IMG/VR virus record: IMGVR_UViG_3300003375_000020
Span: 1 to 64,000 of that record
Direction: 5' to 3' (one strand)
Length of the DNA stretch: 64,000 nt
Origin: a virus
Taxonomy: Duplodnaviria > Caudoviricetes
In this document: positions 23,155-31,570 of the stretch, one piece after another
How positions within the stretch are numbered: position 1 is the first letter of the stretch
Layout: each line of letters starts with the position of its first letter
Made by a program: the position numbers and the translations under genes
Notes under the pieces: model-generated
What the model was told of the DNA's origin: nothing
The model's database searches: none
The model's input: the letters and a program-made list of their open reading frames with translations, nothing else

Positions 23155-23736
23155 ATGGCGATAGTATATCAGCATAAAAGAAAAGATACTGGAGAGATAT
23201 TCTATGTGGGAATAGGAAAAGAAGAGAGTAGAGCTTATGAATATGGTAGAAATTATCTATGGCAAAAAATTGTAGATGAAACTGAATATGATATTGAAAT
23301 AACTCATAGAGATATTATTTATGAAGAGGCTTGTTCAATAGAAAAATATATCATAGCTTTTTGGGGAAGAAAAAATTTAGGACTCGGTCCATTAACCAAT
23401 TTAACGGATGGCGGAGATACAACAGAGGGATATAGACATACAGAAAACACAAAAGAAAAAATAAGCAATACATTAATTGGCTTTAAACACTCTCAAGAAT
23501 CAATTCAAAAAATTGCGGATTCTCATAAAGAAGCGCCATTATCTAATTATCATAGATACAAAATAAGTATCGGAAATTCAAATAAGCCAAAATCAAACGA
23601 ACATAGAAAATCATTAAGTTTTGCTAAATTAGGAGTAAAACATAAGATTGTGATTTGCCCGTGTTGTAATAAAAGCGGGGGAATAGTTAATATGCATAGA
23701 TATCATTTTGAAAATTGTAAATACATAAAAAAATGA
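23155..23736 (+). mobile_element. Free-standing GIY-YIG-like homing endonuclease with NUMOD3 repeats
   Basis: IVYQH...EIFYVGIG; LTNLTDGG; HTENTKEKIS and HSQESIQKI repeats. Confidence 0.8.
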
Positions 23737-26477: not shown

Positions 26478-27413
26478 ATGAAAATAGGATTAATTAGCAT
26501 GCTAGGAAATGTTGGTACCACACTAAACTCTCAAGGTGGAGCGTATGGATTAATAGTAACTAGAATGCTTAAAGATAATCATCCGCAAGATGAAGTTATA
26601 GCGAACCCCGATCCAAAAGATTGGGGTTCTTTTGATATACTATACGATTGTGAAGGAGTCAATTTTGTAGCAGGATCTTTTAATATTCCTGGTGGACCAC
26701 GACCCATTCACAAAGAAAAAATGCAAGCCATTGCAGACTTTAAAGGAGTGCTTAGATTCTCTGATATTATATTTGACTATAACAAATTTAATGCTAGATT
26801 AAAAATAGAAAATGTGCAATATCCAGATGTTAATCATATCTCGTGGTATAATACTTTTTTATCACAAGGATTTAAATCTAAAAAAGCAGTGATTGGAGAT
26901 TCTCATGCATTATCAGTGTGGAGACCAAAACATACACTAGACTTTACTCCTGGTAGAACATTGTATGGATTTCTAAAAAGAGAATCTCCAGAATCGTATA
27001 ACGAAACATTCGATGATGTTACACTATATTTTGGAAATATTGATTTAAGATTTCATTTATATAGACAACAAAATCCAGAAGGCGCAACAAAAGAATTATT
27101 TGAAAGATACATTGATTTTGCAAGACAATTAAAAAATCCTACTTTAGTAGAACCTTTACCAATCGAGCATGAATCAAGAAAAATTCCTGGTACAGGATTA
27201 TATAAAAAGCAACCATTCTTTGGATCAAGAAATGAAAGAATGCGATTAAGACAAGTTGCAGTAGACGTATTAAGAAATTCTGGTTTTCCATTAATACAAT
27301 GGCCAGAAGAATGGATAGACGAAGATGGTACTAAAATGCTAGATATTCTAGAGTCTAAAAGTTCAGTGCATTTAAAACCGAAGAATTATCCATTTTTAAA
27401 AGAAATACTATGA
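26478..27413 (+). CDS. T4 beta-glucosyltransferase N-domain-like / SGNH-fold fusion, putative DNA base-modifying transferase
   Basis: N-terminus MKIGLISMLGNV...SFNIPGG resembles T4 BGT; C-half has VIGDSH, YFGNID and a terminal SVH (SGNH-like blocks). Confidence 0.5.
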   Translation: MKIGLISMLGNVGTTLNSQGGAYGLIVTRMLKDNHPQDEVIANPDPKDWGSFDILYDCEGVNFVAGSFNIPGGPRPIHKEKMQAIADFKGVLRFSDIIFDYNKFNARLKIENVQYPDVNHISWYNTFLSQGFKSKKAVIGDSHALSVWRPKHTLDFTPGRTLYGFLKRESPESYNETFDDVTLYFGNIDLRFHLYRQQNPEGATKELFERYIDFARQLKNPTLVEPLPIEHESRKIPGTGLYKKQPFFGSRNERMRLRQVAVDVLRNSGFPLIQWPEEWIDEDGTKMLDILESKSSVHLKPKNYPFLKEIL

Positions 27414-28318
27414 CATTTGAAATTACAACAGATGTAAGAAATAAAGACATTCCAGAAGGAATGAGTGTAGAACAGGCTAAACAATATTATTTAGATATGT
27501 ACGGAACAGGATTTGTTTCGAGAATGCCTAAAGTAATAATAGAACCATTTGAAGATAAGTTTATTGTTCGATGTGATTTATCTTTAGCAGGATTTAAAGC
27601 GTTTGCTGCAGAAAAAGTAATCGCAGAATGTCCTAAAGATACGTTTGTTTACGTAGCACCAAGAGTTGGTCACGCACCCGAAGCAATTGCGAATTTAGCT
27701 CAATTATATGGTAAAAAATGTGTATTCTTTGCTCCTGCTTCAAAAGAAGTTTCAAAGCATCAAGCAGTTGTAATGGCTTACGGAGCTGATCTAAGATTTG
27801 TTAAAACTCCTGCGATGCCGACAATTAATATTTACGCTAAAAGATGGGCAGAAAAAAATAATGCTCAATATTTAAATTTTGGTTTATCAGGAATTCCAGC
27901 AGTAACAGCCGGAATTGTAAATTTTGCTAATGGTATTCCAGAACCACCAGAATTTTGGTGTGCAGTATCAACAGGAACTATGATCAGAGGTTTACAAATT
28001 GGTTGGCCAAATGCTAAACCTTACGGTGTTGCGGTTGCAAGAAATATAAAGAAAGGCGAAATTGGTAGAGCGATTTTAGAAAGCGCAACAATACCATTTT
28101 TAAAACCGCTTAAAGCAGAATTACTTCCTCCGTTTCAAACAACTGCCACCTATGATGCCAAAGCATTCGATGTATTCAGAAGAAAAGCAAAAGCGGGTGC
28201 TTATTTTATTAATGTTGGTGCTGACGCTCAAATAGAAAAAAGAGTTAAAGAAGTAGATATGAAATCAGTAGATTCTCAAAGGGCTTGGGGAGATATGAGA
28301 GATTTAGAAAGAGCATAA
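27410..28318 (+). CDS. PLP-dependent fold-type II (PALP) enzyme
   Basis: AGFK Schiff-base Lys; VSTGT phosphate loop; TYDAKAF. Confidence 0.75.
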   Translation: MTFEITTDVRNKDIPEGMSVEQAKQYYLDMYGTGFVSRMPKVIIEPFEDKFIVRCDLSLAGFKAFAAEKVIAECPKDTFVYVAPRVGHAPEAIANLAQLYGKKCVFFAPASKEVSKHQAVVMAYGADLRFVKTPAMPTINIYAKRWAEKNNAQYLNFGLSGIPAVTAGIVNFANGIPEPPEFWCAVSTGTMIRGLQIGWPNAKPYGVAVARNIKKGEIGRAILESATIPFLKPLKAELLPPFQTTATYDAKAFDVFRRKAKAGAYFINVGADAQIEKRVKEVDMKSVDSQRAWGDMRDLERA

Positions 28319-28513: not shown

Positions 28514-28807
28514 ATGGCAACAGTAAAAAAACAAAGTATTTTACAACAAGCGCATGAAATAGTTTTTGAAAGAAATGAAGAGAAAGAACGCATGTACGGT
28601 GACTTTATAGAAGGCATGGAACAAACCGCCAGAATCGCATCAGAGATGTCCAGGAAAGAAATAACTACACAAGATGCTTATAATGTATTAATAGCATTAA
28701 AGCTATCCAGAGCGTCTTGGAATTACAAACAGGATAACTATTTAGACGCTTTAGCATACATGGCGTCATTAGATCAGTATTTAAACACAAAAAATAAAAT
28801 AAAATGA
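28514..28807 (+). CDS. DUF6378-like (nucleotide diphosphohydrolase-related) protein
   Basis: ILQQAHEIV...RMYGD...LKLSR...DNYLDALAY pattern. Confidence 0.7.
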   Translation: MATVKKQSILQQAHEIVFERNEEKERMYGDFIEGMEQTARIASEMSRKEITTQDAYNVLIALKLSRASWNYKQDNYLDALAYMASLDQYLNTKNKIK

Positions 28808-30041: not shown

Positions 30042-30434
30042 ATGGAAATTTTAATTATTATTGGATATTTCTTTTTTACAACTTTTGCAATTTTTGGATT
30101 AATTAATTTTTTACATAATAGAAAAATAGACATGAATTTAACAAACGAATTTTACTCAATTAGAGAATGGGCACAAGATAAAGGCATTTATGATAAAGGA
30201 GATGCAAAGACTCAATACATTAAATTATTAGAAGAAACAGGTGAATTGGCGAAAGCAATTCTAAAAGAAGACGAAGAAGAATTTGTAGACGCTATTGGTG
30301 ATTGTGTGGTAGTACTTACCAATCTTGCTAAATTAAAAGGGTATAATATTGAAGATTGCATTAACTCTGCTTACGAAGTTATTGCTAAGAGAAAAGGAAC
30401 CATGCAAAACGGAAGTTTTGTTAAAGAATCTTAA
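30042..30434 (+). CDS. MazG-like nucleotide pyrophosphohydrolase
   Basis: KLLEETGELAKA...DAIGD motif; alternative start at ATG 30132. Confidence 0.85.
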   Translation: MEILIIIGYFFFTTFAIFGLINFLHNRKIDMNLTNEFYSIREWAQDKGIYDKGDAKTQYIKLLEETGELAKAILKEDEEEFVDAIGDCVVVLTNLAKLKGYNIEDCINSAYEVIAKRKGTMQNGSFVKES

Positions 30435-30435
30435 T

Positions 30436-30939
30436 ATGACAAAACAAAAAAGATTAGACATTGTTTTTTTAAACATAGCGAAAGAAGTATCTGCTCTATC
30501 TCACTGTGTTAGAGCTAAAGTTGGTTGCGTTATTGTTAAAGACGGTAACGTAATTAGCTTTGGTTATAACGGCACTCCTACTGGAATGGATAATTGTTGC
30601 GAAGATAAGTTGCGTATGAATGGCGATGAAGGAGGTTGGATCGATCCAGAAACCATTGAAGCTCAATACCCTTTTGAAGATGATCATGGAAGGTACAGAT
30701 TATTTTCTAAACCCGAAGTATTACACGCAGAATCAAATGCAATTCTTAAAGCAGCAAAAATGGGGTTTTCTACTAACGAAGCCACTATGTATTTAACTCT
30801 TTCTCCATGTATTGATTGCGCGAAACTTATTCTGCAATCGGGAATAAAAAAAGTTATATATTCTGAATTATTCTATCGAGATAATGGTAGTGTAGAATTT
30901 TTAAAACAATTTATTGAAGTAGAACACTATGAATTTTAG
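30436..30939 (+). CDS. dCMP deaminase
   Basis: HCVRAKVG, GYNG, HAESNA and SPCIDC motifs; ATG 30436 preferred as start. Confidence 0.92.
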   Translation: MTKQKRLDIVFLNIAKEVSALSHCVRAKVGCVIVKDGNVISFGYNGTPTGMDNCCEDKLRMNGDEGGWIDPETIEAQYPFEDDHGRYRLFSKPEVLHAESNAILKAAKMGFSTNEATMYLTLSPCIDCAKLILQSGIKKVIYSELFYRDNGSVEFLKQFIEVEHYEF

Positions 30940-31570
30940 TAACGCAACAGAAGCATTCGAATGGTTATTTCATCACATAGATATAGCTGGAGAAAGTTTC
31001 GCAGGCACAAAAGCAGTATTTAATCAATCTTTCATTTTATTAGATCCTCAAGATAAAATCATTACTACTCCTGAAAGAAAGTTCAATTTAGAATACGCAG
31101 AGTTTGAATGGAATTGGTATTTAAAAGGCAATCGCGATGCATCAGAAATTGCAGAAAGAGCAAAGATATGGAAACAGATGATGATTCCTGGCACCACAGA
31201 AGTCAATTCTAATTACGGATATTTTTGGAATTATAACGATCAACTAAAAAGAGTCGTAGAAGATCTTAAATCTAATCCAGAAACAAGAAGAGCAATCGTA
31301 GTACATTATTTGCCACACGAAATAGATCGGTACAAATACGATACTCCTTGCAACGATGTATTAAATTTCTACATTAGAAATAATAGATTAGATCTAACAG
31401 TATTCGCAAGAAGCATAGATTTAGTTTTTGGTTTTTGTAATGACCAATTTACTTTTGCAAAATTAATGGAGAAAGTAGCTTATGAATTAAAAATCCCGGT
31501 TGGAGAAATGAATTGGCTGATTACCAATCTCCATGTATACCCAAGACATTATAACTTACTAGAAAAATAA
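30929..31570 (+). CDS. Thymidylate-synthase-family enzyme, dCMP hydroxymethylase type (T4 gp42-like)
   Basis: Catalytic Cys in TPCN; RSIDLVFGFCND has Asp at the nucleotide-specificity position, as in T4 gp42 GFRND. Confidence 0.75.
   Translation: MNFSNATEAFEWLFHHIDIAGESFAGTKAVFNQSFILLDPQDKIITTPERKFNLEYAEFEWNWYLKGNRDASEIAERAKIWKQMMIPGTTEVNSNYGYFWNYNDQLKRVVEDLKSNPETRRAIVVHYLPHEIDRYKYDTPCNDVLNFYIRNNRLDLTVFARSIDLVFGFCNDQFTFAKLMEKVAYELKIPVGEMNWLITNLHVYPRHYNLLEK

Follow-up and report, generated by a model that had tools for sequence, protein, structure and literature searches.

The gene considered here lies on the genome of a tailed phage (Duplodnaviria; Caudoviricetes), IMG/VR record IMGVR_UViG_3300003375_000020, of which the first 64,000 nucleotides, called the window below, were analysed. 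It fills positions 26478-27413 of the window and encodes a protein of 311 amino acids (aa), in which a domain resembling the N-terminal domain of the T4 β-glucosyltransferase (BGT) is followed by a domain of the SGNH/GDSL-hydrolase fold, an arrangement called BGT-N/SGNH in this text. The family of this protein is probably the core of a widespread, undescribed chemical decoration of 5-hydroxymethylcytosine (5hmC) in phage DNA. More precisely, the protein is proposed to act on 5hmC in DNA after replication, where Ser142 and His298 of its SGNH domain would add an ester-linked group that a pyridoxal-phosphate (PLP) enzyme and helical partners would tailor, a reading to which we give about an even chance of being right. 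The hypermodification of hydroxymethylpyrimidines is itself known from phages; what is probably new is the BGT-N/SGNH architecture and its probable chemistry.

The N-terminal domain

The relation of the N-half to BGT is seen by profile comparison as well as by structure comparison. With hhalign, the profile of the full family matched BGT at 89.3% probability (E 2.1e-6), residues 1-96 being aligned with BGT 1-98, and an independently built profile of the N-domain gave 90.1% (E 1.6e-6) over BGT 1-128. In a control comparison with 51 open reading frames (ORFs) taken from loci of T4, E. coli and Aeromonas phages, nothing exceeded 2.2% apart from BGT (89%) and a genuine member of the family (97-100%).

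The full-length AlphaFold model, built from an alignment of 60 sequences (pLDDT 93.1, pTM 0.90), has two alpha/beta domains and a linker, and the N-domain folded alone reached a pLDDT of 87. When this isolated domain was compared with the Protein Data Bank (PDB) by Foldseek, T4 BGT was found at ranks 1, 2, 7, 14 and 27 (TMq 0.59). VIA-align, which is independent of Foldseek, also placed BGT first, at Z 8.0 with the next match at 6.2; in a second run, four BGT entries reached Z 8.0-8.6 over 110-120 aligned residues that span BGT 1-164/173, the whole of its N-domain, followed by the T4 alpha-glucosyltransferase (Z 5.9) and by generic flavodoxin-like folds (5.7 or less). The alignment with BGT therefore ends at about residue 128 by profile and about residue 173 by structure. 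Together, these comparisons support the view that the N-half has the predicted fold of, and a detectable sequence signal shared with, the N-terminal (acceptor or DNA-side) domain of T4 BGT.

An earlier note, made from the letters of this DNA, had already read the N-half as BGT-like, and both the model and the Foldseek ranking, headed by BGT, bear it out. All motifs named in it were located, namely MKIGLISMLGNV at residues 1-12, SFNIPGG at 67-73, GDSH at 140-143, GNID at 186-189 and SVH at 296-298, and the T4 motifs that it quoted are accurate, since BGT in NC_000866 begins with MKIAIINMGNNV and has SINFFGG at residues 68-74.

It could also be that the resemblance to BGT reflects a generic three-layer alpha/beta fold without shared ancestry or role, in which case an SGNH enzyme would carry an unrelated accessory domain at its N-terminus. 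The structural match is moderate, as Z 8.0-8.6 stands at the caution level of the tool, where a value near 8 may reflect a common arrangement; the identity between the N-domain and BGT is 16%, BLASTP of the protein against BGT gave no match, and HMMER profile searches of PDB sequences with the family did not find BGT. Nevertheless, two independently built profiles reach 89-90%, four orders of magnitude over 49 unrelated controls; the alignment begins at residue 1 of both proteins and spans the whole N-domain of BGT; the invariant N69, G72 and G73 coincide with N70, G73 and G74 of BGT; and the gene context points to 5hmC, the substrate of BGT itself, so that a merely generic likeness appears quite unlikely. 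The BGT loop carrying Asn70, Gly73 and Gly74 presumably contacts DNA.

The SGNH domain

Regarding the C-half, the top Foldseek matches in the PDB are all SGNH/GDSL enzymes (E ~1e-4; 42 matches at E <=1e-3), and a wide VIA-align search gave Z 10-13 against SGNH enzymes, with 148-168 residues aligned. The matches include esterases, the thioesterase TesA and the peptidoglycan O-acetyltransferases PatB and OatA, the last two indicating that the SGNH fold is capable of O-acyl transfer to the hydroxyl of a polymer.

In the model, GDSH closes the first strand of this domain (E136-140), GNID comes after the third strand (E180-184) and SVH lies near the C-terminus, which are the places where SGNH blocks I, III and V are expected. 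Across 60 diverse homologs, G140-D141-S142-H143, H193, R234, R254, E292 and H298 are invariant; N69, G72, G73, G159, R191 and R196 are nearly so; and G186, N187, I188, D189, S296 and V297 are conserved in at least 90%. Gly159, conserved to the same degree of at least 90%, follows the second strand and is a candidate for the glycine of block II, and the invariant Glu292 is a possible catalytic acid. When the family was aligned with E. coli TesA by hhalign, only the GDS block was paired (GDSH to GDSL, 1% probability), and the block equivalences beyond block I therefore rest on position and conservation.

Sequence searches with the protein itself were negative in Pfam (no match at E <=1, curated GDSL models included), in NCBIfam and among PDB sequences (phmmer, hmmsearch), and one homolog matches Pfam Lipase_GDSL at E 0.02, below the cutoff. 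The relationships to BGT and to SGNH enzymes are both detected only by profile-profile and structure methods. Even so, the Z scores of the C-half and its conserved Ser and His agree with the earlier note, which had placed an SGNH-like half where BGT has its UDP-glucose-binding Rossmann domain. The same note had called the architecture undescribed, and the literature searched indeed gave no description of a BGT-N/SGNH protein or of this family; it likewise gave no link of SGNH/GDSL enzymes to 5hmC or DNA hypermodification and no SGNH enzyme acting on nucleic-acid bases.

Association with a predicted dCMP hydroxymethylase

Among 80 viral loci, a cassette formed by a DUF6378 protein, the BGT-N/SGNH protein, the PLP enzyme, a homolog of thymidylate synthase (TS) and MazG, with or without a dCMP deaminase, is kept down to 33% identity, and it persists even in loci without the GroEL/PolA context. 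The TS-like gene is found near the BGT-N/SGNH gene in 39 of 40 well-flanked loci. Its product matches T4 gp42 (BLASTP 2e-22) and has dCMP hydroxymethylases as its nearest annotated relatives; residues D138, C141, D164 and D172 correspond to L143D, C146, D169 and N177D of E. coli ThyA, and aspartate occupies the positions of ThyA L143, D169 and N177 in every cassette examined and in the gp42 homologs of Aeromonas phages. Residue rules for the substrate and product of TS homologs are experimentally grounded (PMC13326640), and by these rules the D/D/D signature predicts dCMP as the substrate and a hydroxymethyl product, neither methyl nor 5-hydroxy. A role as 5-hydroxy-dCMP synthase was rejected, as Asp is kept at the ThyA-169 position, and so was one as dUMP hydroxymethylase, which has Asn at ThyA 177, where Asp stands in every cassette examined. 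Thus, the link to 5hmC drawn in the earlier note has strong contextual support in the constant proximity of a TS homolog of the dCMP-hydroxymethylase type.

This context also bears on the idea of a cell-envelope or polysaccharide esterase, similar to the SGNH domains of phage tail fibres and unrelated to nucleic acids. Many viral SGNH matches in the BFVD structure collection are indeed tail-spike or tail-fibre proteins; however, those matches cover the SGNH half only, at E ~1e-3, the gene sits in a replication and nucleotide-metabolism block and not in a structural module, and the cassette is conserved together with hydroxymethylase, MazG and deaminase, which makes such a role very improbable.

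The DUF6378 gene was found in 77 of the 80 viral loci, a constancy nearly equal to that of the hydroxymethylase; close relatives have it downstream of the BGT-N/SGNH gene, distant ones directly upstream of it. The label "phosphofructokinase" carried by DUF6378 families in PHROGs looks like a mis-annotation.

The PLP enzyme, its partners and gene fusions

The stop codon of the BGT-N/SGNH gene overlaps the start of the next one (ATGA at 27410-27413), which hints at a functional link between the two products. This next gene encodes a divergent PLP enzyme, in which an invariant lysine, Lys63, falls on the PLP lysine of cysteine synthases in a family alignment and in a profile search of the PDB, and which co-occurs with the BGT-N/SGNH protein in 79 of 99 loci. 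Relatives of it, at 40-46 bits, occur next to a DNA methylase or joined to one in a single protein, suggesting a DNA-directed PLP enzyme. In Erythrobacter phage vB_EliS_R6L, gp1 (L089:2819-5239) joins this PLP subfamily to an N6/N4 DNA methyltransferase domain, and in Microcystis phage Mae-JY30 the subfamily gene (L090:3132-4720) directly follows a DNA methylase gene, beside ParB-like genes. The window enzyme shares 32% identity (E 9e-23) with the R6L/Mae-JY30 subfamily, and both phage proteins are annotated only as "DNA modification methylase".

Two further proteins accompany the family, as seen by a tally of accessory genes in 40 loci with adequate flanks: the PLP enzyme occurs with partner A in 26 loci and by itself, as in the window, in 5, while partner A alone was found in 5 and partner B alone in 3. 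Partner A has 300-347 aa and is also fused C-terminally to the BGT-N/SGNH domain in proteins of 640-790 aa; it gave no Pfam, PHROG, NCBIfam or PDB-sequence match. Partner B is a protein without a P-loop that matches PF18723, HMUDK_hel, the helical domain of 5-hydroxymethyldeoxyuridine (5-hmdU) DNA kinase, at 37-61 bits, and it is fused to the BGT-N/SGNH domain in ORF233c of an Aeromonas phage (795 aa). The order is opposite in P0258, a metagenomic protein of 981 aa, where an FkbM-type methyltransferase is followed by HMUDK_hel (43 bits) and then by the C-terminal BGT-N/SGNH unit. No Walker A motif was found in any fused or adjacent partner.

An assignment of partner A as an HMUDK_hel or amino-acid:DNA transferase (AADT) protein was tried and not adopted. 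A protein-atlas embedding alone places it near PF18723 clusters; the PF18723 and PF18724 hidden Markov models did not match it in five viral records, and hhalign against HMUDK_hel-type partners gave 0.2-0.3% probability, so that partners A and B are not detectably related.

Distribution and cultured carriers

The family is essentially purely viral. It has 531 matches in a word-indexed protein collection, forms 377 clusters at 50% identity, carries no name and occurs on at least 594 viral contigs, compared with only 19 loci among the genomes of 185,579 species, all of them on contigs of metagenome-assembled genomes. In the protein atlas it is surrounded by viral clusters only, none of which has a name, and the full-length match of the protein, PHROG 13881, has no assigned function. 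The BFVD proteins that match over the whole length by structure are all uncharacterised members of the family, the other matches covering the SGNH half only.

In a collection of 50,697 phage records, the family was found in 43, always annotated as hypothetical: 38 belong to T4-like Aeromonas phages of the 44RR, 31 and 25 types, 2 to Stenotrophomonas phage IME13 and 3 to Tenacibaculum jumbo-phage. The 44RR-type phages have gp42 homologs of 55-56% identity, and no BGT is detectable in them by sequence. This agrees with Petrov et al. (PMC2993671), who in 2010 reported that 44RR, 31 and 25 possess genes 42 and 56 and lack a glucosyltransferase, and who left open whether such phages, naming RB69 and JS98, carry another modification of hydroxymethyl-dCMP (Hm-dCMP). 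For RB69, the answer has since been found in arabosylated 5-hydroxycytosine (PMC13326640); no comparable explanation for Aeromonas phages 44RR, 31 and 25 was found in the literature searched.

In T4-like Aeromonas phages, the gene just before the fused BGT-N/SGNH-HMUDK_hel gene belongs to the sodium:solute symporter family (ORF234c of phage 44RR2.8t, L002:3399-4922; Pfam SSF, 180 bits), and the symporter could import the donor or a precursor. The homolog of Tenacibaculum phage PTm1, ORF-050 (L003:4560-5579), is situated between ribonucleotide reductase genes, one of them with an intein. The weak TS-like match of PTm1 shows no RS.D motif and no clear dCMP-hydroxymethylase signature, which says nothing firm about this phage.

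Proposed mode of action

Whereas the analysis shows both folds, the conservation pattern, the viral range, the gene linkage to predicted hydroxymethylases and the fusions, we infer group transfer to 5hmC in DNA, with regard to its substrate, its direction (transfer and not hydrolysis), its donor and its product. The base flipping and the acyl transfer onto 5hmC suggested in the earlier note, with acyl-CoA or aminoacyl compounds as candidate donors, are likewise hypothetical. The TS-like enzyme would make 5-hydroxymethyl-dCMP, which would then be incorporated into DNA; the BGT-like N-domain and the basic SGNH domain would hold the DNA and present the hydroxymethyl group at the interdomain cleft; the Ser142/His298 centre would put an ester-linked acyl or aminoacyl group on it through an acyl-enzyme intermediate; and the coupled PLP enzyme, in most relatives together with a helical partner, would tailor or replace that group. 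Action on 5hmC in DNA is favoured because the N-domain matches BGT and then the alpha-glucosyltransferase, both transferases of 5hmC-containing DNA, because members of the family are fused or adjacent to DNA-base-modification modules, because a TS-like gene with the dCMP-hydroxymethylase signature is an almost constant neighbour, and because the 44RR-type carriers have gp42, no BGT and an unexplained 5hmC status.

In a bolder version, which is possible but doubtful, the SGNH domain would be the cytosine-pathway counterpart of 5-hmdU DNA kinase: 5hmC would be esterified to give a leaving group, the HMUDK_hel protein or partner A would put an amino acid or amine in its place, and the incoming group would be supplied or tailored by the PLP enzyme. 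An ester in the role of the phosphate made by that kinase would explain the presence of HMUDK-type helical modules without a kinase domain.

Several points weigh against an ester-forming enzyme on 5hmC in DNA, in addition to the moderate Z scores and the negative HMMER search of the N-half given above. The N-domain has a predicted pI of 5.8, compared with 8.9 for the N-domain of BGT, the SGNH domain being basic (9.0). No residue conserved in the family corresponds to Asp100 of BGT, which we take to be the catalytic base from the D100A mutant entry 1NZD; D100 of the window protein lies near the aligned position, where the alignment is gapped and a large share of the members has Q or another residue. 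In the SGNH half, block III departs from the consensus, as GNID replaces GxND and the Asn is shifted by one position, and block V has Ser295 in place of Asp three residues before the histidine. Partners A and B were not found in the 83-kb, 53%-complete record of the window phage. Finally, most SGNH enzymes are hydrolases, and group transfer is therefore not the default expectation.

The last point, together with the acidity of the N-domain, is in line with an enzyme of the same pathway whose target is not DNA: an esterase or acyltransferase for small molecules or nucleotides, which would make or trim the donor of the PLP enzyme or act on 5-hydroxymethyl-dCMP, with the N-domain as a nucleotide-binding flavodoxin-like module. 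The SGNH structural matches are mostly hydrolases of small esters and thioesters, the lower-ranked matches of the N-domain include nucleoside 2'-deoxyribosyltransferases, DNPH1 and CMP N-glycosidase, and the PLP partner has its closest relatives among the O-acetylserine sulfhydrylases, enzymes that act on an ester. Such a role is nevertheless considered unlikely, as the nucleotide-binding folds score about 2.5-3 Z units below BGT, which alone has a profile-level signal, and as relatives carry fused HMUDK_hel modules, whose parent enzyme, the 5-hmdU DNA kinase, works on DNA after replication (PMC8989533, PMC11472151).

Gene features and surroundings

The features discussed are located in Table 1. 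The ORF starts with ATG and fills its interval exactly; one database gene call begins 7 codons later (304 aa), and the start at 26478 is supported because the conserved N-terminus of the family matches it, K2 being nearly invariant. The region has a low GC content (~31%) with all genes on the + strand, and the genes near the BGT-N/SGNH gene encode ribonucleotide reductase, a family A DNA polymerase, Hsp20, GroES/GroEL, ClpP, MazG, dCMP deaminase and the TS-like enzyme. The dCMP deaminase ORF as listed has a TTG start and overlaps the MazG gene by about 85 bases; its true start is probably downstream, because the Pfam match begins at residue 39.

Table 1. Positions in the window of the BGT-N/SGNH gene, its domains and motifs, and the associated cassette genes.
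Feature	Positions	Strand	Basis
Gene of the 311-aa two-domain protein (BGT-like N-domain and SGNH-fold C-domain)	26478..27413	+	ORF list, AlphaFold model
N-domain, residues 1-~124, alpha/beta, like the N-terminal domain of T4 BGT	26478..26849	+	hhalign, Foldseek, VIA-align
NIPGG; N69, G72 and G73 family-invariant; aligns with BGT N70-F-F-G73-G74	26682..26696	+	Family alignments, hhalign
Interdomain linker, residues ~125-132, low confidence	26850..26873	+	pLDDT <50 for residues 125-130
SGNH/GDSL-hydrolase-fold domain, residues ~133-311	26874..27410	+	Foldseek, VIA-align
GDSH, residues 140-143; SGNH block I with putative nucleophile Ser142; invariant	26895..26906	+	60-sequence alignment
GNID, residues 186-189; variant of SGNH block III (GxND); >=90% conserved	27033..27044	+	Alignment
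SVH, residues 296-298; block V-like, His298 invariant	27363..27371	+	Alignment
Fold-type-II PLP enzyme, divergent, 302 aa, translationally coupled to the BGT-N/SGNH gene	27410..28318	+	Pfam PALP 22.6 bits (below cutoff); phrog_7093 1.9e-46
DUF6378 protein, 97 aa, near-constant cassette member	28514..28807	+	Pfam 48.1 bits
MazG-type nucleotide pyrophosphohydrolase	30042..30434	+	Pfam, co-occurrence
dCMP deaminase	30349..30939	+	Pfam dCMP_cyt_deam_1, 86.6 bits
TS-family enzyme, predicted dCMP hydroxymethylase	30929..31570	+	BLASTP vs T4 gp42, alignments

A scan of the region for promoters and terminators gave nothing beyond the shuffled expectation. A terminator-like hairpin with an 11-bp stem and a T-run lies inside the BGT-N/SGNH coding region at 26603-26629, and is probably due to chance because the regional count of such sites equals that expectation. 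Homing endonuclease genes of the HNH/NUMOD type occur within or near the cassette in relatives (L018:9042-9722) and, in the window, upstream of hsp20 at 23155-23736. In close relatives (L009:8954-9649 and about 19 other viral loci), a lipoprotein-like gene of ~229 aa, absent from the window, stands between the BGT-N/SGNH and PLP genes; its reading as a kinase, from a Walker-A-like string in 4 members, was rejected, the insert being lipoprotein-like with a signal peptide and Cys.

Comparison with known systems

T4 BGT, a GT-B-fold enzyme (PDB 1BGT/1C3J/1QKJ/1J39), shares with the window protein the N-terminal domain, the MKIxxI start, the NxxGG loop and a gene position near a dCMP hydroxymethylase in a phage genome. 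Its UDP-glucose-binding Rossmann domain is absent and replaced by the SGNH Ser/His domain, Asp100 is not conserved, the N-domain is acidic, and the chemistry cannot be glycosyl transfer. The members of the SGNH/GDSL superfamily, such as PatB, OatA and E. coli TesA, are similar in the fold of the C-half, in the GDS of block I with its invariant Ser and in the invariant C-terminal His; the window protein differs from them by GNID, by the missing Asp at three residues before the His, by the lack of a Pfam GDSL match, by its BGT-type fusion and by the additional invariant residues H143, H193, R234 and R254.

The closest pathway is the hypermodification of thymidine in phages ViI, M6 and PaMx11, which employs 5-HMUDK kinase, amino-acid:DNA transferases and PLP enzymes (PMC5889632, PMC8989533, PMC11472151). 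Both follow the same logic, where a TS homolog makes a hydroxymethylpyrimidine that enters the DNA and is then modified post-replicatively, and both have an HMUDK_hel domain and a PLP enzyme, the former occurring here in type 2 cassettes and fusions of relatives. However, the base of the present systems is cytosine and not uracil, given the Asp at ThyA-177; the fused or adjacent partners have no P-loop kinase, and PF18723 was not found in the 83-kb record; and the constant enzyme is the BGT-N/SGNH protein, accompanied by a divergent PLP enzyme of fold type II, similar to cysteine synthases.

A non-sugar group on the hydroxyl of 5hmC in phage DNA has a precedent in 5-carbamoyloxymethylcytosine, which was found by MetaGPA through co-occurrence with TS homologs in metaviromes and is formed by a carbamoyltransferase together with a dCMP hydroxymethylase (PMC8670742). 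That pathway has its own enzyme, a carbamoyltransferase using carbamoyl phosphate and having neither a BGT-like nor an SGNH domain.

Significance

By hypermodifying their DNA, phages overcome restriction and CRISPR defences, and useful enzymes have come from these systems, T4 BGT being a standard reagent for the mapping of 5hmC. To our knowledge, 5hmC is so far known to be decorated with sugars or with a carbamoyl group. If the proposed reading is true, an ester-forming Ser/His enzyme built on a BGT acceptor domain would be a new class of DNA base-modification enzyme and would imply a new modified cytosine; if the leaving-group version holds, aquatic phages, as well as Aeromonas phages 44RR, 31 and 25, would contain amino-acid- or amine-substituted 5-methylcytosines that have not been described. 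As these three carriers are in culture, the prediction is directly testable. The family is abundant and spans several phage lineages, and it offers a concrete candidate for the question raised in 2010 (PMC2993671) of what, if anything, decorates Hm-dCMP in 44RR, 31 and 25.

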